Of a stretch of 64,000 nt of DNA, positions 25,301 to 47,951 are shown piece after piece. The notes under the pieces were generated by a model that worked only from the letters and a program-made list of their open reading frames with translations, was not told the DNA's origin and did no database searches. Both the position numbers and the translations under genes were made by a program. Origin of the DNA: Patescibacteria group bacterium (GTDB lineage Bacteria; Patescibacteriota; Patescibacteriia; JAHIZJ01); assembly GCA_028714495.1 (NCBI GenBank), contig JAQTMH010000001.1, positions 73,721 through 137,720 on the forward strand. The letters run 5' to 3'. The first letter of the stretch is position 1; every line of letters starts with the position of its first letter.

Positions 25301-25585
25301 ATGACAATCGGCGAATTTATACTTGAATATAGGGAAAAAAACGATATTACCCAGTCAGAATTTGCAAAGAAATCCGGACTTGCAAGAAGTTACATCGCAA
25401 GACTAGAAAGGGGTGATTTCGAAGACGGATCAATAGGTCTAGCAACATTTATTCGATTATCTAAGGCGTTAGGAATCCCTATGTATAGATTATTTAGTGA
25501 TCTAAAATACGATAATCAGGGAAATTTACCACCATTGGGAGCCTACTTATTAAGAGCCCAAAGAAGAAGAAAAAGCGATGTATAA
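25301..25585 (+). CDS. XRE-family HTH regulator (the ORF could start at 25283)
   Basis: ITQSEFAKKSGLARSYIARLERGD (HTH_3). Confidence 0.8.
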   Translation: MTIGEFILEYREKNDITQSEFAKKSGLARSYIARLERGDFEDGSIGLATFIRLSKALGIPMYRLFSDLKYDNQGNLPPLGAYLLRAQRRRKSDV

Positions 25586-26075
25586 CCTACGTCAAGAAGC
25601 ACAAAAAACGGCAAACGCATTACTTTACGCAGCTAATGTTAATAAACCACCCATACGGATAGATAATATAATAAATTGGCTACGTAAAAATTTGAATTTC
25701 AATATCACCATCTTTAAAAGTGATCAGTATCTAAATTATTATCGTCTTTCCGGTCAGTTAATGAGAAGGGGGCAGAATGTTTGGATTCTTATCAATAAAA
25801 ATGAACACGAAGTCCGCCAACGTTTTACTTTAGCCCATGAATTAGGACACTTGCTTGATGCCTATCAAGTTGCGCATATGACCGAGCTTACTAGAAATCA
25901 TAATCCTGAACGTTACGCTAACCAGTTTGCTTCAGAGCTATTAATGCCAGCCGAGCTTGTTAGAGAAGAGTGGAGTAAATTTTCACAAGAACTCTACCCG
26001 CAATCGTGCAATTCAAGCTATCAAAAATTTTCAATGTATCAAATGAAGCTATGGGCTATCGTCTTAATGAATTGA
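25578..26075 (+). CDS. ImmA/IrrE-family metallopeptidase
   Basis: FTLAHELGHLLDAY (HEXXH). Overlaps the XRE gene by 8 nt. Confidence 0.8.
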   Translation: MYNLRQEAQKTANALLYAANVNKPPIRIDNIINWLRKNLNFNITIFKSDQYLNYYRLSGQLMRRGQNVWILINKNEHEVRQRFTLAHELGHLLDAYQVAHMTELTRNHNPERYANQFASELLMPAELVREEWSKFSQELYPQSCNSSYQKFSMYQMKLWAIVLMN

Positions 26076-26159
26076 ATATACAAAGCGAACACTGGGCTGG
26101 TACGTCGACTCCACCTGTATATAGTAGTTAATATGATATCTTAAAGGAAGTGATTATAT

Positions 26160-26450
26160 ATGGCAAAGCGAGGAAAAGTTGGTCAGGCAAAACACGACAG
26201 GAAGGTGCAGAAAGAACTTGAGAAATTTATTGATCAGGACTTTCGCACGTGGGCAGACCTACCTGGTCGGACCAAGCCACCAAAAGTTGGCGGACGAGTA
26301 CCCGACATCTATGCGCGAAAAGGAAAGAAGCTGGTCGTAGAAGAAATTGAAACCGTTTCAACGAAAAATGCCGACAAACAGCAGCAAAAACAGCTCCGTA
26401 AAGGCACCAAAAAACTTGGTGGCAAGTTTTTTGTGAAGACTGTTAAGTAA
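26160..26450 (+). CDS. Lys-rich hypothetical protein
   Basis: 96 aa ORF. RBS aaggaag upstream. Confidence 0.45.
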   Translation: MAKRGKVGQAKHDRKVQKELEKFIDQDFRTWADLPGRTKPPKVGGRVPDIYARKGKKLVVEEIETVSTKNADKQQQKQLRKGTKKLGGKFFVKTVK

Positions 26451-26505
26451 GAGTAATAACAATAAAAACAGGGGGATCAATTTAGCCTGCACTAAAATTT
26501 ACCAC

Positions 26506-27207
26506 ATGAAAACTGTAATATTTATACTCACAATTTTAATTCTTTTGTCATTCGTTGCATATTATTATAGTTCTGATAAAATTCAGTTTGATCAAATATC
26601 ACTATCATTCTTAAGCGCTTCTATCAGTGTACTTATTGCCGTTATCTTGATCAATTATTATTTAGAGGACGAGAAGAGGAAACGTTGGAAAAAGCTATCA
26701 GGTAAAGTAAATGAAGTATTGTCAAATATGTTTTGGGATCTTTTTAGCTATGTCGATTTTATTACTGATCCACCAAATTCGAATTTTTGGCCAAAAGTTG
26801 ATGACGCAATATCACCCTATGAGCTCTATCACAGAAAACTTAAGGCAAAACACAAATCAAGTAGAATAACCATTCACCCTGAACGTTTTGATGGTTTGCT
26901 AGATGAAGAAATTGGCTGGGGCAAATACTACGAAAACACAAAACGTGAATTTGATGAATTGGAGATCAAGTACCTAGAATTTATTAGTCCAGAGACTCTA
27001 TATAATATTATTGAAATTGAAAAAATTTTAACAAGTATTTCAAGTGGAATAAGAATTATACAAGATTCAATAAAAAGAGGCGAGGAAGAAAGTGGTTATA
27101 TCATAAGTATTAAAGAATCGACTGAGGATGATCATAAAAAAATATTCGCAGTACTCACAAATGTAATACAAAATATTGATTTTTTCGAAATTCATAAAAC
27201 CGTTTAG
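26506..27207 (+). CDS. Hypothetical membrane protein (2 N-terminal TM helices and a cytoplasmic domain), AT-rich
   Basis: 233 aa with TM segments VIFILTILILLSFVAYYY and SASISVLIAVILINYYL. Confidence 0.55.
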   Translation: MKTVIFILTILILLSFVAYYYSSDKIQFDQISLSFLSASISVLIAVILINYYLEDEKRKRWKKLSGKVNEVLSNMFWDLFSYVDFITDPPNSNFWPKVDDAISPYELYHRKLKAKHKSSRITIHPERFDGLLDEEIGWGKYYENTKREFDELEIKYLEFISPETLYNIIEIEKILTSISSGIRIIQDSIKRGEEESGYIISIKESTEDDHKKIFAVLTNVIQNIDFFEIHKTV

Positions 27208-34610: not shown

Positions 34611-34640
34611 GAGCCTCGGCACCAGTCGAGGCTTTTTTCT
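34611..34640 (+). terminator. Rho-independent terminator after the radical SAM gene
   Basis: agcctcg-gcaccagt-cgaggct followed by TTTTTTCTT. Confidence 0.65.
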
Positions 34641-34942
34641 TAAATAAAAAAACCATCCTATTGCAAACCAAGGATGATTTCTTCAATACCAACTATTTCA
34701 GGAGGTATTTATTATCTGACTTAAAAATTTTATTTATGCCTTTTTTTGGCCTTGGCCTCAAGCATCAGTCTTTTAATCTCCAGCCTCTTTTTCGTTTTGT
34801 GAGAATGTGATCTTTGACTTTTACCGACCGCGCTCCATCTTTTCGCCATATGAGTATTATTTATAATGATTATAAGCTATCATAACTGATTGTAAGAATA
34901 AAATCAATGGCTAAAGATTTTTTTATCTCTATCCTGTCGCTG

Positions 34943-34963
34943 TAAATACCCAAGCCCTGGGGT
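34943..34963 (+). repeat. 21-nt direct repeat copy A (taaatacccaagccctggggt)
   Basis: Identical 21-mer at 38001..38021. Confidence 0.8.
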
Positions 34964-35025
34964 GGCTAGAGTTTTTTTAACATTCTTTCCCGCTTGAAAA
35001 TTACTAAATTGTTACCTTTTTTAGC

Positions 35026-37854
35026 CTATTGGCTCACGCTAAGGTTAACACCACCTCGGAAGGCCGGATGAAAACTCATGAACTGGGTTATTACATCGCC
35101 CTCTGCGTCAAAGACTCTAACCTGGGGACCGCCGTCTTTCATCGGCGCGGTGATAATATCGGCTTTTCCATTGCCGTCCAAATCCGTTACCGCCAGTTCA
35201 AGCCCACCTCGGAACGCCTTATTGTACGCCATAAACTGATGTTCCAAGCCCAGTGGACCGAACACCTGGATATGCGGACCGCCGGCTGAAGGCGCCAGGA
35301 CAATTTCCATTTGACCGTCGCCGTCAACGTCGCCAGCGCCCGATTTCAAACCGAGACGCCAACTCTGGTTATAGGCGAAGAACTGGGTAACCAGCGTTCC
35401 GTCGTACTTCATTACCCGGACCTGCGGACCGCCGGCTGAAGCCGCGGTGACGATAAGTTCATTTGCCCCGTCATCGTTGTAATCGGCCAGAGTCACGTTG
35501 ACCCCGCCGCGGAAAGTCGAGGCAAAGGCGTAAAACTGACCCATGAGCTCTCCTGCCTTGTTGAACACCCGGATATGCGGGGCAGAGCCGGCATTGGTTG
35601 AAGTAATGATCTCAGCCACTCCGTCACCGTTGACGTCCCCGGCGTTGACCTTGATGCCTTTGCGGAAGGAGGTGGAATAGGCAAACCACTCGTTATGCAG
35701 AGAGAAGGTGTCGCCGATATAATCATAGATACGGACATGGGGACCGCCAGAAGTCGCTGGGGCGACGATCAGCTCATTGACGCCATCATTGTCGACATCG
35801 GCCGCGGCTAGGCTCAGTCCCCCGCGATAACTGAGGGCGTACGAGAAGAGGTCCGCTTTATAATCTCCGTGTGTATTAAATACGCGTATGTGCGGACCGC
35901 CAGCGCTGTAGGGCGCGGTGATAATTTCTTCTGCGCCATCGTTATCGAGATCAGTCATCAGGGTAGTGACACCACCGCGGAAGGTCTTAGCGTAGGCCAT
36001 GAATGTAGCTTTTAGTTTGCCCGATGAATCCCAAACGGTCACCTGCGGGCCGCCGCCGGCCTTAGCGCCGGTAACGATATAATTAACTGAGTTATCGATG
36101 TCTTCTTCATTGCCGGGAATTTGGGGTAAAGCAATCACATCATTGACGGTAAAATAAGTGGCGTGGTCAACTGTAAAACCGCATAGACCTCCCTTCACCA
36201 CGCAGGTGGTCTCGTTTGCCCAAACCTCTTCACCTTCCCCAAGTGCCTGAATCAGTAAGGTTTTCCCGTTGTATTCACTACCGACGTCAAACGCCAAAGT
36301 AACGTCTTTACTGAATTCAAGGTTCAAGCCAGGGATTCCTAGGTGAATCGTTTTTACTGGTCTACCGAGAAGATTGTTGTCGGTAAGACTGCCTATTTCA
36401 TATTCAACGTTGACTAATTTATAGAAAGCGAAACTGCCTCCGTCATTTTTTGTAACTATCGTGTTGTTCGGAAATGTGGCCGTGGCTTTTGCCGTACCAA
36501 TGGTCCATTCCCGCTCAATCGTTACCGAAGAAGCTTCAGCAGTATTTGTAATGGTTAACCCGGAAGCCTCGGGGAATAAAGTATTCAGGTCTTCGGGATA
36601 AAGATATACAAGGTTCCCTATTTTATCAACCAATAAGAGGTGCTCGACTTGCCATAATCCTTCTTTGCTGGATTTGGGGATCGTGACGGTCTCTTCGTAC
36701 ACGCCGCTTAGATCATTACCGGATATGCGCGTGAGGGTGCCGAAATCGATGAATTGAGTGCCGATCAGCGGGCGTATGCGTAATTGGGTTTCACTGCTGA
36801 TGTAACTGCCGCAATCACTGGCAATACAGACGCCCGCGGCATTGTCAGTCAGCGTCATCGTCAATGTCAGCGTTTGACTTTCATCACTAGTGTTGATTTC
36901 GGTCGGTGTAATCTCAAAAGAGGTTATCTGCGGCCGCTCCCGATCACTCCTGATTGCCGCGTTGAAAATGTCAGTCACGCCTGTTCCAAATTCCGCTTCC
37001 AGGTCAGCCTTGTACAGATATTGACCATTGCCGATTTTATCACCGAGGTAAAAATATTCGGCTGACCAGGTGCCGGGCACACTGCCCTGCGGTAATATTA
37101 CCGTTCCGGTATAAGTGCCATTCAGGGCATCACCAGAAGTACGGGTCAATGGAGCAATAACCACATTCTGCGCTTCGTTCGGAGAGATTAGTCGCAGCTG
37201 GGTTTGACTGACAGTGCCGATGCATTCATTGCCGCCGATACAAACACCGGCGTACTGGTCAGTCAGGGTAAGCGACAAGGTTATTTCCGCGTCAGCGTCG
37301 TCAGTATTTACTGTGCTCGGGGATAAGGCAAACGCAGTGACGTCCGGAGCGGCATCGTCGTAAAGAGTAGCGGTATTATTAACATCGCCTACTCCGTCGC
37401 CGAAAGCTAACTCGAGCTCACTGTTAGACAGCGACGTACTATTTCCCAGCTTATCAACCAACAACATATAGCTCAATTGCCAGACGCCATTTAGGCTATA
37501 TTGCGGGAGGATTGCCGTCGAAGTATAGATGCCATTTAAATCATCTCCGCTTATTCTGGTAAACGAAGTGAAAAAAACTAACTGCGATTCGCCCGTTGAT
37601 GTTAATCGTAGTTGCGTTTCGCTACTGGAGTAGCTGCCGCAATCGCCAGGTATGCAGACGCCGGCCTGATCATCAGTCAGCGTCAAGGTTAAAGTCAAAG
37701 TCTGGTCCGCTGATTCGGTGTTGACGGTATGCGGTGTCAGGCTGAGGGCGGTGACTTCAGGGGCAGCTGTGTCTTCAGCTGCGTTAGCGGCAGCGGGAAT
37801 AAAAAAGACGCACAAGCCAATAAACGCTAGCGCGATTGCGTTTTTTGTCGTCAT
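35026..37854 (-). CDS. Large secreted FG-GAP/VCBS-repeat protein
   Basis: 942 aa. Signal peptide. Repeated D.D.DG...E (FG-GAP/VCBS-like) motifs in the C-terminal half and repeated approx 130-aa modules in the N-terminal half. Confidence 0.7.
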   Translation of the reverse strand: MTTKNAIALAFIGLCVFFIPAAANAAEDTAAPEVTALSLTPHTVNTESADQTLTLTLTLTDDQAGVCIPGDCGSYSSSETQLRLTSTGESQLVFFTSFTRISGDDLNGIYTSTAILPQYSLNGVWQLSYMLLVDKLGNSTSLSNSELELAFGDGVGDVNNTATLYDDAAPDVTAFALSPSTVNTDDADAEITLSLTLTDQYAGVCIGGNECIGTVSQTQLRLISPNEAQNVVIAPLTRTSGDALNGTYTGTVILPQGSVPGTWSAEYFYLGDKIGNGQYLYKADLEAEFGTGVTDIFNAAIRSDRERPQITSFEITPTEINTSDESQTLTLTMTLTDNAAGVCIASDCGSYISSETQLRIRPLIGTQFIDFGTLTRISGNDLSGVYEETVTIPKSSKEGLWQVEHLLLVDKIGNLVYLYPEDLNTLFPEASGLTITNTAEASSVTIEREWTIGTAKATATFPNNTIVTKNDGGSFAFYKLVNVEYEIGSLTDNNLLGRPVKTIHLGIPGLNLEFSKDVTLAFDVGSEYNGKTLLIQALGEGEEVWANETTCVVKGGLCGFTVDHATYFTVNDVIALPQIPGNEEDIDNSVNYIVTGAKAGGGPQVTVWDSSGKLKATFMAYAKTFRGGVTTLMTDLDNDGAEEIITAPYSAGGPHIRVFNTHGDYKADLFSYALSYRGGLSLAAADVDNDGVNELIVAPATSGGPHVRIYDYIGDTFSLHNEWFAYSTSFRKGIKVNAGDVNGDGVAEIITSTNAGSAPHIRVFNKAGELMGQFYAFASTFRGGVNVTLADYNDDGANELIVTAASAGGPQVRVMKYDGTLVTQFFAYNQSWRLGLKSGAGDVDGDGQMEIVLAPSAGGPHIQVFGPLGLEHQFMAYNKAFRGGLELAVTDLDGNGKADIITAPMKDGGPQVRVFDAEGDVITQFMSFHPAFRGGVNLSVSQ

Positions 37855-38000
37855 ATTATTGTTTATTAATAATTTCCTGACTATCAGTATAATTATAACG
37901 GTAAAACTATTTTCCTACAATGTGTGATTTTTATAGCCTGAAAACCTTAAGGGTCCGGGACCGGCGCCACAAATAACTATTCGTTTAAATCTTATCATAT

Positions 38001-38021
38001 TAAATACCCAAGCCCTGGGGT
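38001..38021 (+). repeat. 21-nt direct repeat copy B (taaatacccaagccctggggt)
   Basis: Identical to 34943..34963. Lies at the left edge of the AT-rich island. Confidence 0.8.
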
Positions 38022-38180
38022 CGCGAGTGGAAGCCCGTTATAACCAATTTATTGGGAGTTTTAGAGGATGGGCAGTATATGAATATGCTATTGGCGAAAC
38101 TTGAGGCAATCGGCAATCTTATGGAAGCAAAAGGCCGGGTTTAGTTTATTATTAGTTATTATAGTTCTGAATGCCACTTT

Positions 38181-39125
38181 TTATTTAATAAAGCGACATC
38201 CTCCGCCACAATTTATATAGCTTTGACATTGATCGCAAATCGGCTTGGCGTTTTTCTGTCGAAAAGTTTTAACTTCATCTAGGTTGGATAATTCATTAAA
38301 ATTTTTATCAAAAAGATTGCCGAGTATCTCGGGATTCTGCTCACAGGTTCTCAAATTACCCAAGGGATCAATAACCCACTTATCTTTCCCGCATCCACAA
38401 GTACCAAATTTGAGGTGGGGGTATTTTTTATGATCAACTTCGCACGGTTCTATTGGTATGGTGATGTTTACTTGAATATTGTCTTGGGCGTTCTTGTGAT
38501 TGGCTATTCGCAAGGTGTCTTCCAGCTCCCGCCGGGAAATCTGCAGAGTCTCAATGTTTTTTATGCCCGCGCCTCCGGGTACGAAACGGTTGAGAGCGAT
38601 GGAATCGACTGAAAAAGCAAAGCACAAATCAACGACATCTGCTATGTCCGTATGGTTTGATTTGGTAATGGTAAATGAGGCGGTCAATGGAATCCTAAAT
38701 TTTTTAACAGCCAGTATTGCTTGGCGCACTTTTTCAAGCTGATTATTGCCACTTAGTTGAAAATAGGTTTTAGGGTAGGTGGTATCAAGGGATATTTCAA
38801 AGTATTTAACCCCGTCTTTTGTTAGTCTACGAACTTTTTCTTCATCAAGTAGAGTGCCATTGGTAGCCAAGCCAACTTTGTTTCCGAGCCCATATAGGAG
38901 ATTGACAATGTTAAAAATATCCGGATGCAGTAGAGGTTCACCGCCGGATAAGATGATGAATTTTGGCTTTATCTCGGCTAATAGTTTCTTGAATAGAACT
39001 TTGATGGAAGCCAGGCGCAACTCACCGCGCGGATATTTTTTGTTTTCCTTCCACACATTGTAGCAGTACAAACAGTTATTATTGCACCGTGGCGTGACTT
39101 CAAAAATAATATAAGGCCTATTCAT
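38181..39125 (-). CDS. Radical SAM enzyme with a C-terminal SPASM domain (peptide/protein maturase class)
   Basis: CNNNCLYC (CxxxCxxC) near the N-terminus. C-terminal Cys-rich CGCGKDKWV...C...CDQCQSYINCGGGC (SPASM-like). Confidence 0.8.
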   Translation of the reverse strand: MNRPYIIFEVTPRCNNNCLYCYNVWKENKKYPRGELRLASIKVLFKKLLAEIKPKFIILSGGEPLLHPDIFNIVNLLYGLGNKVGLATNGTLLDEEKVRRLTKDGVKYFEISLDTTYPKTYFQLSGNNQLEKVRQAILAVKKFRIPLTASFTITKSNHTDIADVVDLCFAFSVDSIALNRFVPGGAGIKNIETLQISRRELEDTLRIANHKNAQDNIQVNITIPIEPCEVDHKKYPHLKFGTCGCGKDKWVIDPLGNLRTCEQNPEILGNLFDKNFNELSNLDEVKTFRQKNAKPICDQCQSYINCGGGCRFIK

Positions 39126-40185
39126 TGGTTACTAAATCCTGAATCAGCTCATTGAGCTGAGGAAGTGCAATTTTTACTTTTTCAATTTCTTCTTTCGTCT
39201 CTTTATACTTGCTTTCAATATCTTCAGGGTAGTATATGTTAATATTTTTAGTACCTGATTTTTTATCTATCAGATATGACTGGTAGTTTTCCTCAAACGC
39301 ATTTATATAATATTGTGCGGTTCGCAGTAGGCTGGTTTTATTAACTCCATTGTCATAATAATTATTGGCATAATATACGGTGTAATGGGACGAAATCGTA
39401 TCAAGTATTGAAAAAAGTTCGATATCCTGCCAAATCAGCCGTTGCGCCTGGGTAAAATCATCGCTACTAACGATACCCTTGTTACGCAATTCAATAAGAG
39501 TGTCAATCTTAAATTCTAGATCTTTTATTGAATTTTCTTTATCGGTCAATGTAATAGGTGGAATCATCCGCATTATCATACTAGAAAAACCCGTAGACAT
39601 ATAGCTAATGCGCTCTTGGCAAATTTTTTCAATCAGATCAATTTCAGTGTCGCTAAGTACAAGTTCCTCCTGCGTCATACCCTCCAGACTGTTTATCAAT
39701 GTCGTCAGCTCACCCTTAAAAATTTCGGCCTGTTCTTGGGTAATTGCATCGGCATACTCTCCATAATAGGTAGTAAGGGCGGTATCATCAGTTTTATTTT
39801 TTGGGACAATATCGTCAAGTTTCTGCCAGAAGGTTTTGAAATTCTTCCATTCTGAAGTATTATTGAGTAATTTAATCCTACCTGATTTATATTCAACAGT
39901 TTGTGGAGTGGTTTTATTTTGTTTGATGTTCGTATTGGTCTTATCCGTTTTTTCTAAAAGATCGCAGCCACTCAAAGTAAAGGCGATGAGGAGAGTGCTC
40001 ATAAACAGGCCGTACTTTTTATATTTATTCACCTTAAGCTTCCTGAATCCGATAATGGTCAGGATGGAAGCGACAATAGAGGCAGTGGAAATGATGATAA
40101 TGTTATATATTTTATCCATATTTGTATTATACCTTTTTATCAAAAAACCGCCATTGTTGGCGATCTTTTGTTTTGGTTCAAGCAA
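39118..40185 (-). CDS. Hypothetical lipoprotein/membrane protein cotranscribed with the rSAM-SPASM gene
   Basis: TM plus lipobox LSGCD. Overlaps the rSAM gene by 8 nt. Confidence 0.55.
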   Translation of the reverse strand: MLEPKQKIANNGGFLIKRYNTNMDKIYNIIIISTASIVASILTIIGFRKLKVNKYKKYGLFMSTLLIAFTLSGCDLLEKTDKTNTNIKQNKTTPQTVEYKSGRIKLLNNTSEWKNFKTFWQKLDDIVPKNKTDDTALTTYYGEYADAITQEQAEIFKGELTTLINSLEGMTQEELVLSDTEIDLIEKICQERISYMSTGFSSMIMRMIPPITLTDKENSIKDLEFKIDTLIELRNKGIVSSDDFTQAQRLIWQDIELFSILDTISSHYTVYYANNYYDNGVNKTSLLRTAQYYINAFEENYQSYLIDKKSGTKNINIYYPEDIESKYKETKEEIEKVKIALPQLNELIQDLVTNE

Positions 40186-40279
40186 GCTTCAAAAGGGTGG
40201 CATTATAGATAAGTTCAGAACAGTTGACTGGAAGCGGGTTCTAGATGATCTAGCGCAGTTATTCCCTACTTTGTCATCA

Positions 40280-40741
40280 CTAGCTAGAATCCCTTAGCAT
40301 TACTTGTACTCTTTTTGCGACTTGAGGGCTAGCCACAACGCCCTCAATTAGTTGTTTGATTATTTCTTCGGGCATTGCTTCTGAGCAAACCTTTAGTTTG
40401 CATTGTTGCAATTTATCAATAAGGTATTGAGAAGTTTTTTCAAAAACACTATTACAGTCAATTACAGTATCCAAACAAAAAATTGAATACTGAGCAGGCT
40501 TTACAATCACAAGAGTTTTTGACGGGAGCTTTAATCTGCGTATTATACTCTTTCTTTTTTCCACCTGTGATGAAGCGCAAACTAAAATAAGAAACTCATC
40601 ACTTCTCGGATTTTTATTGAGGACAATAAAATAATGAGGCTCAGTAGATTTTAGTTGTTCCTCTTCAAAATAGTAGACTGAGCCAGTCTTTATGGTTGAT
40701 AAAATATGGATATGAGGTGGAATATCCATTTGTATAAACAA
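40280..40741 (-). CDS. Candidate toxin partner of the Panacea-domain antitoxin (unknown family)
   Basis: 153 aa. Starts 1 nt after the antitoxin stop (translationally coupled). No known motif. Confidence 0.4.
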   Translation of the reverse strand: MFIQMDIPPHIHILSTIKTGSVYYFEEEQLKSTEPHYFIVLNKNPRSDEFLILVCASSQVEKRKSIIRRLKLPSKTLVIVKPAQYSIFCLDTVIDCNSVFEKTSQYLIDKLQQCKLKVCSEAMPEEIIKQLIEGVVASPQVAKRVQVMLRDSS

Positions 40742-41350
40742 CTAAAGCCAATATTGGGCTACTTGGTAATTTTCGGTAAAGATTTCTTTTGAGGCATCCA
40801 AAATGTCTTTACCCAGAGCAAATTTATCTTCGCCGTTATTTATAGGGTCATTAAAAAAGTCTGAATAAGTCATTGGTTCTCTCGTTGTTTCTTTTGAGTC
40901 AAATGCACCCTTAAACTTTCTCCATTCTGGATAACGGTGAGTAATATTTACCAACTTAGAGGCTGGGTACTTCCCAAATTGGTTATAGCTAAAATTAAGA
41001 GCATCCAATTCACTTTGTGAAAACAAATCCTCTTGTACTTCATTTACTGACTGGACACTATTAGCTTGAGAACCTTGTCGGATATAACTTTGCGCGTATT
41101 GTTTCTCTTGATCAGCTAAAAAAACTGTTGAGTCGACAATATCTTTAACCGAAGAACCTACCGGTCCTAGGGGCATAGCAAAATAAGCATCGTTTATCAT
41201 TGGTCGTCCATACCGTCTTAGATGGAATCGATCAGCTAAGTAAATGAGCTTAATAAGTTTGAGTTTATCAATACTACCACCTTCTTTTTTAGCAAGGTAG
41301 TTAATTACTTGGGTAGCTTTTTTGTAGTCAAACTCAAGTAATGTTTTCAT
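40742..41350 (-). CDS. Panacea-domain (DUF4065/SocA-like) antitoxin
   Basis: KLIKLIYLADRFHLRRYGRPMINDAYFAMPLGPV resembles the Panacea domain core. Confidence 0.6.
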   Translation of the reverse strand: MKTLLEFDYKKATQVINYLAKKEGGSIDKLKLIKLIYLADRFHLRRYGRPMINDAYFAMPLGPVGSSVKDIVDSTVFLADQEKQYAQSYIRQGSQANSVQSVNEVQEDLFSQSELDALNFSYNQFGKYPASKLVNITHRYPEWRKFKGAFDSKETTREPMTYSDFFNDPINNGEDKFALGKDILDASKEIFTENYQVAQYWL

Positions 41351-41437
41351 ATTTTCACCTTTCGTTTATAGCGTTCAATACTACTCAATCCTACCTTTTT
41401 ACTTGAAAATAATCAAGATGTAAACTAAAGTAAAGTT

Positions 41438-42196
41438 ATGATAAACAATAAAGGTCAAAAGCTTACAAAAGAACAGTTTAATAAAGGAATGAAGAAACTT
41501 GCCAGTTCCCAAGGCCGACAGAAGCTATGGAACTACTTCTTAAGTATTATTAAATCGACCAAATTCCAAAAGACTATTGCTGACTTGCGAAAAAAATATG
41601 ACATACCAAAAGATGGCTTTGGGCCTTCTTCCGAAGGGTTCATTCTGCCTCCCCGTCAATGGGAATATGAGGACCCTCGAAATAGAAAAATTAGAAATGA
41701 CGCAGAAGGTCTTTGTAAGGAATATGGTTTATATTTTATTGATTGGCAGGATGTAATAGAATTTGTCATATATTATAATAAACTTTATAAGCCAGAAGAA
41801 ATTGGCGGCGATCTCTGTATGGTTTCAGATTTTAGGGAAGAAGCGAAAGAGCCATTTACAAAATGGATTCAGGCGGCTGATGATTATTCCTTTCCTGTAG
41901 CAATAAGGGTCAGCCCCTATGCGAGCGAGCGGGATATAATTGATTTTATTAAGAAAAGCTACTACCTTTTTATTAAGCCGATTCAGGATTCTTATAAGGA
42001 GAGCGGCTCAAAAATAGGAAAGCTAAAAAAACGAAAGAAGTCAATTCAAGATAGAAATGATTTTATATACAACAACCGCGAACTCCCAAGAAGAGAAATT
42101 GGGAAGTTAGTTAGTAAAAAATTTAATGAACTTCTGGACTATGGGCTTATCGGGAAAATTATTTCAATTGAAAAAGAAAGGAGAAGGGATGTGTAA
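41438..42196 (+). CDS. Hypothetical protein (mobile-element associated)
   Basis: 252 aa ORF, AT-rich. Confidence 0.5.
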   Translation: MINNKGQKLTKEQFNKGMKKLASSQGRQKLWNYFLSIIKSTKFQKTIADLRKKYDIPKDGFGPSSEGFILPPRQWEYEDPRNRKIRNDAEGLCKEYGLYFIDWQDVIEFVIYYNKLYKPEEIGGDLCMVSDFREEAKEPFTKWIQAADDYSFPVAIRVSPYASERDIIDFIKKSYYLFIKPIQDSYKESGSKIGKLKKRKKSIQDRNDFIYNNRELPRREIGKLVSKKFNELLDYGLIGKIISIEKERRRDV

Positions 42197-42277
42197 CACA
42201 GAAATTTTCTAGGGTACAGAAAATTCTTATACAAGTAATTCAATAAACGATAACCTGATGATATAACATCAGGTTTT

Positions 42278-42460
42278 ATGTTTTTTAGGCAACAAACATC
42301 AACCAATAACGCAATAAATCAAGAAAAGATTGATGATATTTTTGTTGACTTTGAGTCTAGGTCAAATATCGTTGGTCTCTTTGATTTGTTACTCAAGATT
42401 GATCGGCGTAATAATCCACAACGATACAAACCAGAAATGAGGGAGAAAGACTATGATTGA
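42278..42460 (+). CDS. Small hypothetical protein
   Basis: 60 aa ORF overlapping the downstream gene by 8 nt. Confidence 0.3.
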   Translation: MFFRQQTSTNNAINQEKIDDIFVDFESRSNIVGLFDLLLKIDRRNNPQRYKPEMREKDYD

Positions 42461-43583
42461 TACTATTATTCTTTCAATCCCTAAAACAAAAACTATTAAA
42501 CTAGATTTTATGGATGACAGCCTAAAGCCGTGGGACTTGCAATCACGAACTAATGTCTATGATAAGTATGTTAAAAACGCACCAAGCAAAGAGATTGGAC
42601 AAGGCACATATTATCCCCGGCTAACAGGATTCAGAAGGAAGGGTGAAAATGGCGAGTGGGGTTCAACCATCAAGATTGAGTTTTCTGCTCCCAAACTACT
42701 TTTTCAGAATAATCTTGATGAGCTTACAGAAGATCAATTTGATAATGTTGTTGACGTTTTACGGGAGCGAATGAAAAAAATGGGAGTTGGTGCGCTAACG
42801 GGGATAATTGCGGATGCGAAAGTAATGGCTGTTCACTATTCAAAAAACATTGAACTTACAAATGGGTATACGGCAGAATACGTGATTGGAGAACTTAATA
42901 AGGTTAACCTCAATAAACGCTTTGACCTTGCTCGCGCACGTTATATGAACGATGGTCAAAGTTTATATGCTTATACAACCGCACATTCACTAGTCATCTA
43001 TGACAAAATAGCAGACTTAACACGGGGTAAAAAACGATCTACCGACAGGGAGCAATCTGATTATCAGTTAAGCTTATTGGAAGCGTTAGTAAGTCAAAAG
43101 AAACAACGAGAAATACTCCGTATAGAAGTGCGTCTAAGCCAGAAACAAAAAATTAACACCCTTTTTGAAAAACTTGGCTACACCAAAAATCCGTCTTTCA
43201 AAGATGTTTTTTCAGAGGAAAAAAGTAAAGCAGTACTCCAACATTATTGGGATACGATGATTGATGGCAATATTTCCTTTCTTTTTACCCCCTCGCTGTC
43301 TGCCAAAGATGTGCTGAAACAAGTACTGTTTATGCAACCTGATATTAAACCCAAAGAAGCTATTTACCGTACCGGGTTAGTATTGGCTTCGCGTGAAGGC
43401 AATGGGATGCGTGAATTACGGGCAATGCTTAAAAAACGATCAAACGATAGGACGTGGTTCAGAATGGCTGCTGATGCAAGGGCAACTGGTCTGGCTTTGA
43501 GCGAAATACAGCCAAGAGAGTGGTGCAGTCAAATCAAGGGTATTCTAAGGGATTATCGGCCATTTCGGGTGAAAAATAGCTGA
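42453..43583 (+). CDS. Rep_trans-like rolling-circle replication initiator
   Basis: MIDTIILSIP N-terminus, SLVIYDK, and LRIEVRL resembling conserved blocks of the replication initiation factor family. Confidence 0.55.
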   Translation: MIDTIILSIPKTKTIKLDFMDDSLKPWDLQSRTNVYDKYVKNAPSKEIGQGTYYPRLTGFRRKGENGEWGSTIKIEFSAPKLLFQNNLDELTEDQFDNVVDVLRERMKKMGVGALTGIIADAKVMAVHYSKNIELTNGYTAEYVIGELNKVNLNKRFDLARARYMNDGQSLYAYTTAHSLVIYDKIADLTRGKKRSTDREQSDYQLSLLEALVSQKKQREILRIEVRLSQKQKINTLFEKLGYTKNPSFKDVFSEEKSKAVLQHYWDTMIDGNISFLFTPSLSAKDVLKQVLFMQPDIKPKEAIYRTGLVLASREGNGMRELRAMLKKRSNDRTWFRMAADARATGLALSEIQPREWCSQIKGILRDYRPFRVKNS

Positions 43584-43619
43584 CTTGCTATGTAAACCAT
43601 TGTAAAGTATAATATAAGT

Positions 43620-43796
43620 ATGAAAAAACAAGATTTCTATACAGCCCAAGAGTTAGCGGATAAACTTCGGGTCAATGTAATGACTATTTATCGTTATATC
43701 AAGGCTGGCAAACTAGAAGCCTATAAGTTTGGTAAAGAGTTTAGAATTAAACTCAAAGAATTCGATACTTTTATAAATAGTGCCAAGGTGAAGTAA
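43620..43796 (+). CDS. Excisionase/AlpA-like HTH DNA-binding protein (58 aa, below the ORF-track size cutoff)
   Basis: MKKQDFYTAQELADKLRVNVMTIYRYIKAGKLEAYKFGKEFRIKLKEF. Confidence 0.6.
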   Translation: MKKQDFYTAQELADKLRVNVMTIYRYIKAGKLEAYKFGKEFRIKLKEFDTFINSAKVK

Positions 43797-43797
43797 T

Positions 43798-44823
43798 ATG
43801 CAAACAAGTCTTTTCAAAAAAAAGAGAAAAAGCTGGGACAAGGGCGGGAATAAATTTACCTTTATTGATTTATTTGCAGGCATTGGAGGTTTTCGTATAG
43901 CACTTGAGGATCAGGGTGGTAAGTGTTTGTTCTCATCTGAAATAGATAAAGAATGTGTGAAAACTTACGCGGCAAATTTTAACGATTACCCGAGTGGCGA
44001 TATTACTGAAATCAAGCCATCCTCAATACCAAAACACGATATTCTCTGCGGCGGCTTTCCTTGCCAGCCATTTAGCATATCAGGAAAACAAAAAGGGTTT
44101 CAGGATACAAGAGGAACATTATTTTTCAATATATTAGAAATAATAAAAGAAAAAACTCCGAAAGTTGTTTTTTTAGAAAACGTAAAACATCTTCAATACC
44201 ACGACAAGAAAAGGACACTAGCAACAATTATTAAACACCTTGAAGAGCTTGGCTATAAAACGGAGTGGCATTTATTAAATGCAAAGGATTTTGGATTGGC
44301 GCAAAATAGGGAGAGAATAATTATTATCGGGAATAAGCACAAACACTTTAGTTTTTCAAAAATTAAAACTTATGAGCCAAAAATTATTAAAGATATTTTA
44401 GAAAAAAATGGTAATTTCGAATATCTTAAGCCGTCAGAATTTACAATTCTTCCAAAGGGCAAATGGAGAAAACAGGCATCAGGGTTAATATTTTGCGGGT
44501 ATAGAAATAAATCCATACGAATAAATGGAACACGACCAAATACAGAGCATCTATCCCGTGTTCATAAGCAGCCCAATAGGATATATCACATAGATGGTAC
44601 GCACCCCACTATCCCATCACAAGAATCATCTGGAAGATTTTGGATATTTGATGGGAAAAAAGTCAGAAAGTTAACCTTAAATGAGTGTTTTCGGCTTATG
44701 GGGTTCCCTGATGATTTTGAAAAAGTTAGTAGCAATGGCGCAAGGTACAACCAGATTGGGAATGCAGTTGCAATACCGATGATCAGGGAAGTAACTCATC
44801 AAATATTAAATCAACTAATATAA
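43798..44823 (+). CDS. DNA cytosine-5 methyltransferase
   Basis: FIDLFAGIGGFRIALE (motif I), GGFPCQPFSISGK (motif IV), FLENVKHL (ENV) and QIGNAVAIP (motif X). Confidence 0.9.
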   Translation: MQTSLFKKKRKSWDKGGNKFTFIDLFAGIGGFRIALEDQGGKCLFSSEIDKECVKTYAANFNDYPSGDITEIKPSSIPKHDILCGGFPCQPFSISGKQKGFQDTRGTLFFNILEIIKEKTPKVVFLENVKHLQYHDKKRTLATIIKHLEELGYKTEWHLLNAKDFGLAQNRERIIIIGNKHKHFSFSKIKTYEPKIIKDILEKNGNFEYLKPSEFTILPKGKWRKQASGLIFCGYRNKSIRINGTRPNTEHLSRVHKQPNRIYHIDGTHPTIPSQESSGRFWIFDGKKVRKLTLNECFRLMGFPDDFEKVSSNGARYNQIGNAVAIPMIREVTHQILNQLI

Positions 44824-44828
44824 ATCAT

Positions 44829-45929
44829 ATGGATCACAAAGAAAAATTGCTCGAGATATATCATAAATCGGTTGATGTATCAGATATAATAAATATATCT
44901 GATGAGGATAAAGTTTTCCTACAAAATGTAGCTTCCAATGTTGATAGAAATAAGGGTGTCTATACTGTGTTGGTTACTCTCCTAGTTCATAAGTTATTAG
45001 TGCCAAAGCAAGACATTAGATATTTCCAAAATAAAATGAAGAAGGGATTCTCTGCCCGAACGCTTGATACAAAGTTTATTACCCCTACTCTCAAAGAACT
45101 AAAATTGCCTTCAATGGCAGAAAGTGGATGGTTAACCAGAAGCTTGGAGCAACCTTATCCTTATACATTAAAGTATGAAGGTGAAATATCAGGAAAAGAT
45201 ATGAAGAAATCATTCTTGAGAATAATTGATTCGATTCAAAAACATCCTGCTTTAACGGAAAATTATCTCAGATTTATACTCAATGGATCAATTGCTTTTA
45301 GGGATAAAAATACTATCGAAATAAAAAAAATATTTAATGGCGATGGGTTGACCATTGCAACAATTGTAAACTTATTAGAGGAACATTTTACAGAAAATTA
45401 TAAAACGCACGGAGGGTCAAAACTTCCCGTTTTAGCCTTTTATGCTATATATAAAATTTTAGTTTCAGAGTTAGGGAGATACAATGGCTGTGAGCTATTA
45501 CCGCTGGGTAGCCATACTGCTTCAGACAGAACGTCAAAAAGTTCGGGGGATATAGAAGTTACAAAAAATGGTAAAATTTTTGAATCAGTTGAGGTAAAAT
45601 TAGATAAACAAATTGATATTACAATGACAAGGATTGCATACGAAAAAATAGTAAGATTTAATCCTATTAGATATTACATTCTTTCGTATATTGGAATAAA
45701 AGAACAAGATAAAAATGTAATTGAGGATTTGATTAAAGAAATTAAAACAAAGCACGGGTGCCAACTAATTGTGAACGGATTGTTGCATACATTACGGTAT
45801 TATTTAAGATTGATTTCTGATCCAAAGTATTTTTTTAACAGCTATATTAAACTAGTTGAAAATGATACAGAAATTAGGCCCATACATAAAATGAAGTTAA
45901 AAGGGTTGATAAAAAAATATGATCTATGA
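44829..45929 (+). CDS. Candidate Type II restriction endonuclease paired with the C5-MTase
   Basis: PD-(D/E)XK-like SGDIEV...ESVEVKLDK. Located immediately downstream of the MTase. Confidence 0.55.
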   Translation: MDHKEKLLEIYHKSVDVSDIINISDEDKVFLQNVASNVDRNKGVYTVLVTLLVHKLLVPKQDIRYFQNKMKKGFSARTLDTKFITPTLKELKLPSMAESGWLTRSLEQPYPYTLKYEGEISGKDMKKSFLRIIDSIQKHPALTENYLRFILNGSIAFRDKNTIEIKKIFNGDGLTIATIVNLLEEHFTENYKTHGGSKLPVLAFYAIYKILVSELGRYNGCELLPLGSHTASDRTSKSSGDIEVTKNGKIFESVEVKLDKQIDITMTRIAYEKIVRFNPIRYYILSYIGIKEQDKNVIEDLIKEIKTKHGCQLIVNGLLHTLRYYLRLISDPKYFFNSYIKLVENDTEIRPIHKMKLKGLIKKYDL

Positions 45930-47536
45930 AAGCAGTAATCCTAGCTAGAGTATCAACAGAAGAGCAGAAAGACGCAGGGAACTCACTCCCCGCCCAAATT
46001 GATAGATTAAAAAATTACTGCAAGCGCCAGAGTTTTGAAATTATCGAGACATTTAGTTTTGATGAGAGTGCCTACAAGACCAAACGCGATGAGTTTGATA
46101 AGGTGCTTGATTTTTTGAAAACGCATAAAGAGAAAGTCGCCATTTGTTTTGATAAGGTTGATCGGCTATCGCGCAACGTCTTTGATAAACGCGTTTCACT
46201 GCTTTATGATAAGGCAGTGGCCGATGAGATTGAATTGCATTTTGTTTCTGATGGCCAGGTTGTTGGGCCGTCAATGTCGGCAGTTGAGAAGTTTCATTTT
46301 GGCATCAGCCTAGGCCTTGCAAAGTATTATTCCGATGCTATCAGCGACAACGTAAATCGGGTTTTTGAGCAAAAACGCCGTCAAGGCCAGTGGCTTTCCC
46401 GTGCGCTTATTGGTTATGTTTATATTACGCTCAATGATGGTAAGAGGGATTTAGCGCCAGACCCTGAACGCGCGCATTTACTACGAAAACTCTTTGAACT
46501 ATACGGCACTGGGAATTACTCCCTGAACACTTTATGGCAGGAAATGAAAACGCTTGGCTTGCGAAGTATCAAGGGCAAGCCGATAGCACGTAGTAGCGTT
46601 GATCGTATTTTGCGCGATCCTTTTTACTATGGGATGGTTCGTTCAAAAAAGCACGGTTTATACCCGCATCGCTACGAGCCGCTTATTACCAAGGAGCTTT
46701 TTGATAAGTGCCAAGACGTAATGAGAGGGCGTGGCTATAAGCCGTCCAAACAGGCCTCCAGGCCGTATGTTTTGAAAGGCCTAGTTACTTGTAAAAATTG
46801 TGGCTGTTTATATACCCCCGAAATAAAGAAGGGCAAGTTCATCTATTACAGTTGCACCAACGCCAAGCATAACTGCAAAAGGGTATATGTCAGCGAGAAA
46901 GACCTGTTACAGCCCGTGTACGGGGTTTTCAAGGCCTTCGGTGGCATCTCTAAGGGGGTACAGGAACGGCTAGTATCCGAGCTAAGGTCTTTAAGCGAAG
47001 GCGAGACCGTCTTTCACCAAAAAGAGATTGAAAGGGTCCGGGCTGAATATGACCGAATACAGAAACGAATTGACGCTCTTTTAGATATGCGCCTAGACCA
47101 GAGTATTACGCACGATGACTATGACAAAAAATTGCAGGAGTTAAAAGACAGGCAACACCAGCTTGGCATTGAGTTGGAAGAATACACGAAAGCCGATCAT
47201 CAGTACCATATCCACGTTTCTACGGTACTAGACCTATCGCGCAGAATGGGTCAGATTTTTGATAGTTCTGAACCAGAGGAAAAACGCTCGATTTTGAACT
47301 TTATACTTCAGAACCCGACTGCGATAGGGAAGAAACTCAGCTTTACGCTTAAAAAGCCTTTTGATTCAGTACTTTCTTTAGCTTATGCCCAAACGGAAAA
47401 CAGGGCATTTAGCCCTGCTTGTCCTGTATGGGGTGGCCAGTGGGACTTGCACCCACAATCCCGGATCAAGGTCCGGGACCGGTGCCATACCCGCCCGCCT
47501 CGCGACGAGCGGCTTCATAAGCGGAGTCTGGGGTGA
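45926..47536 (+). CDS. Large serine recombinase (integrase)
   Basis: N-terminal resolvase domain AVILARVSTEEQ..., recombinase domain and Zn-ribbon CKNCGCLY...C. 536 aa. The 3' end overlaps tRNA-His. Confidence 0.9.
   Translation: MKAVILARVSTEEQKDAGNSLPAQIDRLKNYCKRQSFEIIETFSFDESAYKTKRDEFDKVLDFLKTHKEKVAICFDKVDRLSRNVFDKRVSLLYDKAVADEIELHFVSDGQVVGPSMSAVEKFHFGISLGLAKYYSDAISDNVNRVFEQKRRQGQWLSRALIGYVYITLNDGKRDLAPDPERAHLLRKLFELYGTGNYSLNTLWQEMKTLGLRSIKGKPIARSSVDRILRDPFYYGMVRSKKHGLYPHRYEPLITKELFDKCQDVMRGRGYKPSKQASRPYVLKGLVTCKNCGCLYTPEIKKGKFIYYSCTNAKHNCKRVYVSEKDLLQPVYGVFKAFGGISKGVQERLVSELRSLSEGETVFHQKEIERVRAEYDRIQKRIDALLDMRLDQSITHDDYDKKLQELKDRQHQLGIELEEYTKADHQYHIHVSTVLDLSRRMGQIFDSSEPEEKRSILNFILQNPTAIGKKLSFTLKKPFDSVLSLAYAQTENRAFSPACPVWGGQWDLHPQSRIKVRDRCHTRPPRDERLHKRSLG
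47440..47498. repeat. Partial duplicate of the tRNA-His T-arm region plus one arm of an inverted repeat (pair at 47745..47790)
   Basis: tgggacttgcacccacaatcccgg compared with tggggcttgcacccacaaccaccgg in the tRNA. cccggatcaaggtccggg/ggggtggcca recur inverted at 47745-47780. Confidence 0.6.
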
Positions 47537-47605
47537 CTAGTGGGGCTTGCACCCACAACCACCGGTGCCACAGACCGGTGCTCTACTAATTGAGCTATAG
47601 TCACC
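47529..47605 (-). tRNA. tRNA-His (anticodon GTG) with G-1 and encoded CCA
   Basis: Minus strand G-GTGACTA TA GCTC AATTAGTA GAGC A CCGGT CTGTGGC ACCGG TGGTT GTGGG TGCAAGC CCCAC TAGTCAC C CCA. Confidence 0.8.
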
Positions 47606-47744
47606 CCAGACTCAACTTAATATTAATTTAACATTTTCAATATTAATGTGAACTTCTTATATCCTTGCTCGGCGTCGGGGCAAGCAGACCGATACTCCCT
47701 GCCCCGCATAGCGAGTTTGTGTGGGGTACTCCCTGCCCCGAACC

Positions 47745-47790
47745 CGAGCTTGTCCCGGACCTTGATCCGGGATGGTTCGGGGTGGCCACC
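47745..47790. repeat. Inverted-repeat partner of 47440..47490, flanking tRNA-His
   Basis: cccggaccttgatccgggatggttcggggtggcc. Also a direct duplication of actccctgccccg at 47693 and 47729. Confidence 0.55.
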
Positions 47791-47951
47791 CCTGAGCCAA
47801 CTTCCCATACTAATTTCAAAAATATCGTATCAAAAATTGCCTGTTTTGGCAAGATTAACTGATAACTAATAAAAAAATCGCCTGCTCTCTGAATGCAGAG
47901 CAGGCGTGCCAAGCGATTCACATCACTTGGCTTGGCTCGGGCGCCGGATCA

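Follow-up and report, generated by a model that had tools for sequence, protein, structure and literature searches.

The AT-rich block beside tRNA-His

The analysis concerned a 64,000-nt stretch of contig JAQTMH010000001.1 (positions 73,721 to 137,720; assembly GCA_028714495.1) from a Patescibacteria group bacterium, hereafter the window, with all coordinates counted from its first nucleotide. From 38 to 46 kb the window contains an AT-rich block with a G+C content (GC) of 0.32–0.41 per 1-kb bin, against a window mean of 0.47, and an intact tRNA-His(GTG) gene, copy D, lies beyond it (47529-47604, minus strand; found by ARAGORN and by Rfam at 64 bits, with G-1 and CCA encoded). A sequence-only reading had described the block as an integrative element built around a large serine recombinase (LSR), and all of the features that it listed were recovered in place. 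It is likely that the block is an integrated mobile element of approximately 9.4 kb, E2 (roughly 38022-47428), that it belongs to a family in Patescibacteria and works as proposed below, and that it stands in tandem with an outer segment lacking a recombinase, E1 (34964-38015). The status of integrative element is assigned because of a family-wide comparison and a related genome that apparently lacks the region.

The left part of E2 is encoded on the minus strand. It comprises a cargo gene for a radical S-adenosylmethionine (rSAM)/SPASM enzyme (38181-39125; Radical_SAM E 2e-24, SPASM E 1e-5), a gene for a 355-aa protein with a transmembrane segment and an LSGC lipobox (39118-40185; called as 333 aa in contig L002), a gene for a 153-aa protein in the position of a candidate toxin (40280-40741) and, with the 153-aa gene directly downstream of it (40741/40742), a gene for a SocA/Panacea-domain antitoxin (40742-41350; PF13274, E 1.3e-21, 78 bits). 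The remaining genes are on the plus strand and encode a 252-aa protein (41438-42196), a 60-aa open reading frame (ORF; 42278-42460) that overlaps the start of the next gene, a 376-aa core protein (42453-43583), a 58-aa HTH_17 or 'excise' protein (43620-43796; TIGR01764, 49.8 bits), a C5 cytosine DNA methyltransferase (MTase; 43798-44823; E 3e-97), a 366-aa candidate PD-(D/E)XK restriction endonuclease (44829-45929) and the 536-aa LSR (45926-47536), whose start codon is overlapped by the endonuclease stop codon. All element genes have a GC of 0.31–0.41, with the exception of the LSR gene at 0.46. E2 as a whole has a GC of 0.37 and the flanks have 0.47–0.49.

The recombinase family, its target tRNA genes and its gene content

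The LSR has a resolvase catalytic domain at residues 3-156 (PF00239, E 6e-21) and, in its C-terminal part, Recombinase (PF07508, E 1e-15) and Zn_ribbon_recom (PF13408 zinc ribbon, E 2e-7) domains, and residues 1-463 are matched by the 'integrase' family phrog_95. The residues R8-V9-S10-T11, which include the nucleophilic serine, are invariant among 27 homologues. The protein was classified as a large serine recombinase on these matches, and attP × attB catalysis (recombination between the element and host attachment sites) is predicted for it from the repeats and junction comparisons given below. More than 2,000 homologues were found at E ≤ 1e-30, the named ones being mostly from Patescibacteria (metagenome-assembled genomes), and one scan of species-representative genomes gave 80 loci with LSRs 51–64% identical. 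No description of this family of LSR elements was found in full-text literature searches, and the family is apparently both large and undescribed. Loci and contigs fetched for comparison with the window, either as relatives or as carriers of a hairpin described below, are designated by L-numbers.

Most LSR homologues are approximately 495–525 aa long, and homology across the family stops at about codon 503 (47434). The last 33 codons of the window LSR (504-536) are read-through across a pseudo-tRNA and a spacer. An overlap of the LSR 3' end with tRNA-His had been reported in the sequence-only reading; the 8-nt overlap does exist for the maximal ORF, but it is a product of this read-through. 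The stop codon of the LSR in L084 lies inside its own tRNA-His, and the window LSR is 100% identical on a Logan contig.

Flanking sequence was sufficient for scoring in 77 loci, and 57 of these have an antisense tRNA gene where the LSR ends, defined as a tRNA 3' end lying −35 to +24 nt from the end of LSR homology. The target genes were 41 tRNA-Asn, 7 Gln, 4 His, 2 Asp, 2 Leu and 1 Tyr, and an intact tRNA-His(GTG) gene directly adjoins each of the two LSRs most similar to that of the window (77 and 75% identity). Among the 20 loci without a called tRNA, many show tRNA 3'-end-like sequence past the LSR, and five of the seven scanned have a group I intron (RF00028, Rfam) right after it, all on the minus strand (L017 11531-11768, L030 11541-11779, L075 11526-11742, L053 3480-3735 and L069 6464-6734); in L017 the intron comes immediately after a tRNA 3' exon. 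The true rate of tRNA association is therefore above 57/77. Many target tRNA genes in these Patescibacteria appear to be intron-split, and those that are split are probably tRNA-Asn. The attachment norm for the family is an exact direct repeat of 14–24 nt corresponding to the tRNA 3' end, from the acceptor strand into the T arm, and such repeats bound elements of 3.8–10.3 kb in seven loci.

Other recombinases were observed at related loci. In L084, the closest long relative, a second, different LSR (563 aa; 39-1810) abuts a tRNA-Arg(TCT) at the left end of the element, and another tRNA-Arg(TCT) with a tyrosine integrase lies on the right (11841-13128), so that tRNA gene clusters seem to be hotspots for multiple elements. 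Among deposited phage records, the LSRs nearest to that of the window are encoded by MT837677.1 and MT836653.1, unannotated 'Bacteriophage sp.' records of 6–9 kb from human faeces, with 34–37% identity over approximately 90% of the protein; these may be elements of a similar small type.

The shared gene content was determined by tblastn of the window proteins against 85 related loci. The backbone consists of the LSR (85/85), the HTH_17 protein (70/85) and the 376-aa protein (68/85), with the 252-aa gene as a semi-conserved accessory (17 loci) and the 60-aa gene in 15 loci, neither product having a Pfam match. For the rSAM gene a single locus has a weak match, and none of the 85 has a counterpart of the 355-aa or the 153-aa protein. 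Between the HTH_17 and LSR genes, 66 loci have one or two co-directional ORFs, whose usual end point is the LSR start codon. In a Pfam census of 117 of these ORFs the counts were N6_N4_Mtase 25, ResIII 19, C5 DNA_methylase 12, D12 MTase 8, N6_Mtase 6 and Eco57I 5, and the endonucleases were of the HpaII, TdeIII, HindIII, AlwI, CfrBI, HaeII, BpuJI, ThaI, MvaI/BcnI, Mrr and HNH kinds. The interval is a cargo slot that nearly always holds a restriction–modification (R-M) system, and since the census is dominated by R-M genes the LSR family can be described as an R-M carrier with a fixed slot.

In the window the slot holds the C5 MTase (PF00145, 326 bits; TIGR00675, 321 bits; PADLOC MTase_II, E 8e-112) and the 366-aa candidate endonuclease. 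The latter scored 18.2 bits against RE_SacI, under the cut-off of 19.3, and had no PADLOC or PDB match; GD241 and (E/D)255-x-K257 are conserved in four homologues of 23–71% identity. The earlier proposal of a methyltransferase paired with a PD-(D/E)XK nuclease is supported both by this GD...(E/D)xK motif and by the family-wide slot. The same pair was observed in L040 (3-1575; 78 and 71% identity) beside an LSR that is only 56% identical, and in the window the R-M genes have a GC of 0.31–0.35 versus 0.46 for the LSR. The L040 pair and the GC contrast suggest that R-M cassettes are exchanged between elements.

For the smaller genes, the sequence-only reading had named an AlpA-like excisionase, a Panacea-domain antitoxin and an rSAM-SPASM gene next to a lipoprotein gene, and these identifications agree with the TIGR01764, PF13274, rSAM and lipobox assignments above. 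The HTH_17 protein, which also weakly matches the MADS MAD1 helix–turn–helix, is a candidate recombination directionality factor and equally a candidate regulator of the R-M or Rep operon. The 153-aa ORF that abuts the antitoxin gene matched no family in Pfam, PHROGs, NCBIfam or PADLOC; in L084 and L089 the place beside Panacea is taken by other small ORFs, and the 153-aa protein is a candidate toxin partner on account of its position. The rSAM gene scored below all NCBIfam equivalog cut-offs. Identification of its product as viperin was rejected, as it has the generic rSAM core only and a SPASM domain is present. The 355-aa lipobox protein had no family in the Pfam, PHROGs, NCBIfam and PADLOC scans, and the two genes are considered to form an operon because they overlap by 8 nt.

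Two non-coding features of the rightward operon are shared with relatives. A conserved motif, ATGTAAACTAAAGTAAAGT (41418-41436, plus strand), lies just 5' of the first gene. The sequence GTAAACTAAAGTAA is exact in at least 20 related loci (L006, L009, L012, L013, L017, L037, L038, L044, L052, L057, L062, L064, L069, L075, L082, L084, L086 and L089-L091), at the same relative position a few nucleotides 5' of the first gene of the Rep operon. It is conserved whichever gene comes next, whereas the element proteins are just ~50% identical, and the motif is a candidate promoter, operator or origin. A hairpin, AACCTGATG-ATATAA-CATCAGGTT (42252-42275, plus strand), is followed by TTTATG at the start of the 60-aa ORF, and its structure is kept through compensatory changes in L014, L084, L007, L070 and L048; it is a candidate terminator or origin hairpin. 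L084 and L089 have ORFs of 55–56 aa at the position of the 60-aa ORF.

The 376-aa protein had been read from the sequence as a Rep_trans-like initiator, and this holds as a distant relationship. Rep_trans matched 21 of 56 homologues, all below the cut-off of 29.6 (best E 3.7e-4, residues ~135-278), and Phage_CRI, the N-terminal domain of G2P, was passed over residues 1-230 by two of the 56 (P0163 at 28.6 bits and P0125 at 23.4 bits; cut-off 21.7). An AlphaFold2 model built on the family alignment had a pLDDT (predicted local distance difference test) of 84.5 and a pTM (predicted template modelling score) of 0.80, and Foldseek of this model against the BFVD viral structures returned four proteins at probability 1.0, one of them named Inoviridae G2P. 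Y53 and Y183-D184-K185 are invariant in the family, the latter in a strand-turn region. Counting against the assignment, the window protein had no match in Pfam, PHROGs, NCBIfam or PADLOC, and Foldseek against PDB gave nothing for the model, RepD-type structures included. A profile search of the family against PDB sequences also gave nothing, and the C-terminal helical third has no counterpart identified. From the family profiles and the model we conclude that the protein is a putative nicking initiator, distantly related to the Rep_trans/G2P superfamily. By analogy with the MobT proteins of ICEBs1 and Tn916, which have a double role as initiator and relaxase (PMC5704250), it may serve as replication initiator, relaxase or both, and the motif at 41418-41436 and the hairpin at 42252-42275 are its candidate cis sites.

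In tblastn searches, neither PLSDB nor INPHARED contained a match to the 376-aa protein, and only two relatives were found among the 2.9 million contigs of IMG/VR. This near-absence indicates that the family is not a recognized plasmid or phage group. The closest 376-aa homologue (75% identity) occurs in L089/L090/L091, in an element with Panacea, 55-aa and 339–379-aa genes and a different radical SAM gene at the left. No LSR gene was called downstream in these contigs, where a 166-aa ORF lies instead, and the element may be a decayed or differently integrated relative.

Junctions of the element and competing explanations

The sequence-only reading had placed the right end of the element at tRNA-His. 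The LSR in fact abuts a pseudo-tRNA-His, copy C (47429-47487, minus strand), a 3' half only that lies 41 nt downstream of the 3' end of the real gene. Copy C runs through the acceptor strand, the T arm, a 20-nt hairpin in the variable-loop position and the anticodon-stem 3' strand and ends inside the anticodon loop at 47487, with 47426-47458 being 88% identical to 47526-47558. Neither ARAGORN nor Rfam called it; it lacks the 5' half, and the cloverleaf is incomplete. The partial T-arm duplicate noted previously is real and larger than had been described. Copy C (at 47440-47456) and the real gene share the non-canonical T loop TGCAAG (UGCAAGC/U, not UUCGAAU-like), whereas the tRNA-His genes of L084, L085 and L033 have canonical T loops. 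Because the unusual T loop is shared with the real gene, copy C is interpreted as a paralogue from the host lineage and not as element DNA.

Over the 48 nt that lead up to TGGGGTGGC, the P arms of the window and of L084 are 96% identical; beyond it, each sequence follows its own host tRNA. As identity with L084 ends there, the crossover is placed at or near TGGGGT (47429-47434, plus strand; LSR codons 502-503), here termed site C and proposed as the right junction, attR, of E2. A short contig from a sister sample, L001, ends at 47431, within 2 nt of the proposed junction. This is suggestive of the junction, although it could also reflect low coverage.

At the left, the same hexamer ends site B (38001-38021, plus strand; TGGGGT at 38016-38021), where it is followed by CGCGAGTGGAAGCCC, a mimic of the acceptor and T stem of the tRNA-His 3' end. 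The P' arm of L062 starts with TCGCGAGT, which resembles this left-junction mimic. Site B is the second copy of a 21-nt repeat, TAAATACCCAAGCCCTGGGGT, whose first copy, site A (34943-34963, plus strand), is followed by GGCTAG; there are two exact copies in the window, with none expected by chance. Sites A and B bound E1, which has a host-like GC of 0.51 and contains a gene for a 942-aa FG-GAP/DUF7035 surface protein (35026-37854, minus strand). The block described in the sequence-only reading is sound, but this second repeat-bounded segment lies to the left of its proposed start.

When the left half of B is rejoined to the right half of C, 26 of 27 positions match site A. The exact 21-nt repeat and this match form the pattern expected for tandem accretion, and the locus looks like a tandem array of an older E1, carrying the FG-GAP gene only, and the LSR element E2. 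An array reading of (host arm, P1') at A, (P1, P2') at B and (P2, tRNA) at C fits these sites, with A as the proposed attL of E1 and B as the proposed attL of E2 and internal attI. Streptococci provide a precedent at tRNA-Lys, where tandem arrays containing an internal attI have been described (PMC5704250). The TGGGGT at 47429-47434 and 38016-21 is most likely the crossover, rather than the 22-nt inverted repeat described below.

A relative provides a possible empty site. The 648-aa rSAM gene flanking the array has an 86% identical homologue on a 5.5-kb Logan contig, L125, with homology at the DNA level (87%) extending to 34637, a point shortly beyond the rSAM terminator. The best plus-strand match of the last 23 nt of L125 in the whole window is 47487-47506, where the pseudo-tRNA ends and the 41-nt spacer begins. 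This suggests that L125 lacks 34638-47486 (12.85 kb), in which case the pseudo-tRNA would be either a lineage-specific second copy of tRNA-His or part of earlier insertions. Comparison with a relative free of the element had been suggested as the way to delimit it; a break at 34637 was observed, and the match of the tail is no better than in shuffled sequences. L126 and L127 (64% identity, flanking rSAM gene) are not syntenic downstream and are uninformative. Within the stretch that L125 appears to lack, an unannotated ORF for a very basic 39-aa protein (MAKRWSAVGKSQRSHSHKTKKRLEIKRLMLEAKAKKRHK; 34742-34861, minus strand) with its own terminator was observed; it had no Pfam match.

The inverted repeats near tRNA-His, previously proposed as attachment or recombination sites, are real. 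The 22-nt hairpin ATCCCGGATCAAGGTCCGGGAC is exact at 47458-47479 (plus strand) and 47752-47773 (minus strand), with none expected in shuffles, and a second inverted pair is formed by GGGGTGGCCA (47430-47439) and its reverse complement TGGCCACCCC (47783-47792). The inverted hairpin copy is followed by GGTTC and the palindrome GGGGTGGCCACCCC (47752-47792) and is located 148 nt past the 5' end of the real tRNA-His; this stretch forms part of a strongly structured region of 130 nt. The hairpin was rejected as an attachment site of the family, since it is absent from all 88 related loci even with four mismatches allowed. The same 22 nt are exact in 33 unrelated Joint Genome Institute metagenome contigs (L092-L124, mostly GC 0.55–0.62), always as the tip of a longer hairpin: a dispersed repeat and several other contexts with compensatory lower stems. 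No tRNA was called at the 22-mer in any of these 33 contigs (one has a tRNA-Gln ~1.7 kb away), a search for copies of the metagenomic repeat without the 22-mer found none, and neither the metagenomic repeat nor the hairpin region nor the structured stretch at 47655-47800 matched an Rfam family. The hairpin is not a feature of the LSR family.

Two rearrangements involving these repeats were also rejected. Inversion between the two 22-nt hairpins restores no tRNA on reconstruction by hand, and for a 362-bp unit with terminal inverted repeats (47430-47792) carrying tRNA-His, the L125 tail matches best from 47487, which is inside the unit. The region between tRNA-His and a 161-aa gene (47655-47800) is GC-rich and strongly structured (minimum free energy −74 kcal/mol, z = −4.8) and contains ACTCCCTGCCCCG twice (47694 and 47728). 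Elsewhere in the window, a second low-GC patch (0.37) at 25283-27207 encodes an XRE-type helix–turn–helix protein (100 aa), an ImmA/IrrE-like protein with an HELGH motif (165 aa) and a membrane protein of 233 aa; the patch is possibly a further small island.

Several results weigh against the tandem array with crossover in TGGGGT. The block of identity is just 6 nt, compared with the 14–24-nt repeats of relatives, and a longer 18-nt repeat forms a competing junction pair. The L125 tail match is short, with a score of 11 that equals the shuffle mean, and it has weight only through its location. Look-ups with five window proteins found no circular-junction or empty-site contig from the same population, but solely the integrated arrangement or the short contig ending at 47431. 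The origin of the pseudo-tRNA, of the 22-nt hairpins and of the inverted copy at 47752-47792 is left unexplained, and to these points are added the missing Pfam and PDB matches of the 376-aa protein. Separately, local alignment with gaps between the two junction regions, left and right, did not reach significance, and in a register comparison the tRNA-like piece at 38016 is offset by 5 nt from the 18-nt repeat.

That repeat is the basis for placing the ends of the same element elsewhere, at GGTCCGGGACCGG(C/T)GCCA, whose left copy, GGTCCGGGACCGGCGCCA (37952-37969, plus strand; right hairpin half and an anticodon-stem-like piece), would be the attL core and whose right copy lies at 47470-47487 (plus strand). 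The pseudo-tRNA and its hairpin would then be element-borne, as the P arm, and integration would have used a host sequence that contains a hairpin and lies 41 nt downstream of tRNA-His. The two copies are identical at 17 of 18 positions, compared with at most 13/18 elsewhere in the window, and the right one ends where tRNA homology ends and where the L125 tail best matches again. Moreover, ATCCCGGATC-AA-GGTCCGGGAC is a near-perfect dyad around a non-palindromic AA, resembling a serine-recombinase core, and the P' arm of L011 begins CAAATAA, like the window after the left repeat, which is a further point against a crossover in TGGGGT. However, the region of identity in relatives is the 3'-terminal 14–24 nt of the tRNA and not the variable or anticodon region, DNA identity with the L084 P arm ends at TGGGGTGGC, and the hairpin is missing from the 88 related loci. 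The odd T loop gives the pseudo-tRNA a host-derived look, and the 21-nt repeat at 34943 and 38001 would be left unexplained. We regard these alternative ends as unlikely. Improbable to a slightly greater degree is a single composite island spanning the whole 12.85-kb block 34638-47486 (the 39-aa ORF region, the FG-GAP segment, the LSR element and the pseudo-tRNA), with sites A and B as internal relics. It would account for the apparent absence of exactly this block from L125, and accretions of integrative mobilizable and conjugative elements at tRNA-Lys that excise whole are known (PMC5704250). Nevertheless, the FG-GAP segment has a host-like GC of 0.51 versus 0.37 for E2, the left end of the block is without a repeat, and L125 is a different species (87% identity) whose contig ends 23 nt past the break. 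No FG-GAP-like cargo was found in the family among 85 loci, a weak argument, as only E2 genes were looked at.

The resemblance of the replication protein to phage G2P raises the question of an inovirus-type prophage or phage satellite, since the best fold matches are viral, including Inoviridae G2P, and homologues of the 376-aa protein match Phage_CRI. This is very improbable, as no morphogenesis (pI/Zot) ATPase, coat or ssDNA-binding family was found in the 10 larger element proteins (Pfam, PHROGs and NCBIfam) or the 60-aa ORF (Pfam), the family cargo is R-M and toxin–antitoxin (TA) genes rather than virion genes, and there are two IMG/VR relatives only, with none in the phage and plasmid record collections searched. 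An ancestral, non-mobile segment of host DNA with unusual composition would be compatible with the identical integrated arrangement in the two assemblies holding the region and with the lack of any circular form seen. This is strongly disfavoured and hardly credible: the same core genes lie beside different tRNA genes in dozens of genera with different cargo, related elements are bounded by direct repeats, the relative L125 appears to be without the region, and the GC is 10 points below that of the flanks.

Proposed working, relation to known systems and significance

Under the tandem-array interpretation, the LSR would recombine an element site that mimics the tRNA 3' end (attP) with the 3' end of a tRNA gene. 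The target here would have been a second copy of tRNA-His, now a pseudogene, with the crossover inside TGGGGT (38016-21 and 47429-34), and E2 would lie in tandem with an older E1 that used the same site. The predicted attP junction joins 47434 to 38022, i.e. ...CCTGTATGGGGT joined to CGCGAGTGGAAG..., and the predicted attB junction joins 38021 to 47435, i.e. ...CCCAAGCCCTGGGGT joined to GGCCAGTGGGAC.... Excision would be carried out by the LSR, probably together with the HTH_17 protein, acting in directionality or operon regulation. The excised circle would be nicked at a cis site and copied by rolling-circle replication by the 376-aa protein, for which a relaxase function in transfer is also possible. 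The Panacea TA pair and the C5 MTase/PD-(D/E)XK pair would stabilize the element and defend the host, and the rSAM-SPASM gene with its lipoprotein-like neighbour would be strain-specific cargo.

The functionally closest known systems are the integrative mobilizable elements (IMEs) of Firmicutes, with an integrase and MobT/Rep_trans. These combine a serine or tyrosine integrase with a MobT/Rep_trans initiator or relaxase and often TA or type II R-M modules (PMC5704250). A size below 15 kb, TA and R-M stabilization modules, and tandem accretion at a tRNA 3' end with an internal attI are common to both. In Firmicutes, tRNA 3' ends are targeted by tyrosine integrases, and serine-recombinase IMEs enter dispensable genes with very short repeats (PMC5704250). 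The present family differs in that a serine recombinase targets tRNA 3' ends with 14–24-nt repeats, the host is a Patescibacteria lineage, the Rep protein is so distant that Pfam misses the window copy, and most members have a fixed R-M slot; these four features set it apart from the known systems. E2 has the integrase of its own and the bounding repeats at a specific site that characterize an IME, with two candidate repeat pairs in the window. No coupling protein, type IV secretion or conjugation genes were found among the element proteins (Pfam and PHROGs) and no oriT was identified, the sole relaxase candidate being the Rep_trans-like protein.

The staphylococcal cassette chromosome (SCC) is close in its logic of an LSR acting at a gene 3' end. 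Through their Ccr LSRs, SCC elements enter a conserved housekeeping gene at its 3' end with ~15–20-nt direct repeats, frequently carry defence or R-M cargo and form tandem or composite arrays. CcrB is the best named NCBIfam relative of the window LSR, at 90 bits and far below the cut-off of 900, so the kinship in sequence is at superfamily level only; in addition, the SCC target is rlmH and not a tRNA gene, and SCC elements are not known to have a rolling-circle initiator. The mycobacterial prophage-like element phiRv1 similarly combines a serine integrase with a small 'excisionase family' helix–turn–helix protein that could set directionality. The window shares the LSR and a small HTH_17 protein matching TIGR01764 'excise', for which a directionality role is predicted, but phiRv1 targets a repetitive element and not tRNAs.

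In myxophage Mx8 intP and SSV1-type integrases the attachment site lies within the integrase gene and integration alters the C-terminus. The proposed crossover in LSR codons 502-503 is comparable, with the last 33 codons being target DNA, although those enzymes are tyrosine recombinases and here just a short non-conserved tail would change. For the 376-aa protein, the Phage_CRI and sub-threshold Rep_trans matches, the inovirus G2P fold match and the invariant Y-D-K are points of resemblance to G2P and pT181-type RepC/RepD, while solved RepD-type structures were matched neither by sequence nor by Foldseek and the C-terminal third is unmatched.

The map of the window is corrected accordingly to a tandem array at a tRNA-His pseudogene in place of a single element ending at the functional tRNA. 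Beyond the window, we tentatively put forward two ideas jointly, a combination that is possible but doubtful. One is a Patescibacteria-wide class of 'R-M shuttles', of which the window element would be the earliest member to be described and in which a serine recombinase would have independently adopted insertion at tRNA 3' ends, with the crossover in its own last codons and a fixed, translationally coupled slot that exchanges R-M cassettes between lineages. The other is that the 22-nt hairpin, nested here within a tRNA variable loop and carried by 33 metagenome contigs in the loops of unrelated repeat hairpins, would be a new miniature mobile palindrome.

Patescibacteria (the candidate phyla radiation) make up a large share of bacterial diversity and, to our knowledge, their mobile elements are almost unknown. 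If the proposal is correct, serine recombinases can occupy the tRNA 3'-end niche that is usually assigned to tyrosine integrases, and the family would supply a natural set of serine integrases whose tRNA attachment sites can be predicted, of use in building genetic tools for organisms that have few. A family with thousands of members and differing R-M systems in one slot would also partly explain how R-M systems move among reduced genomes.

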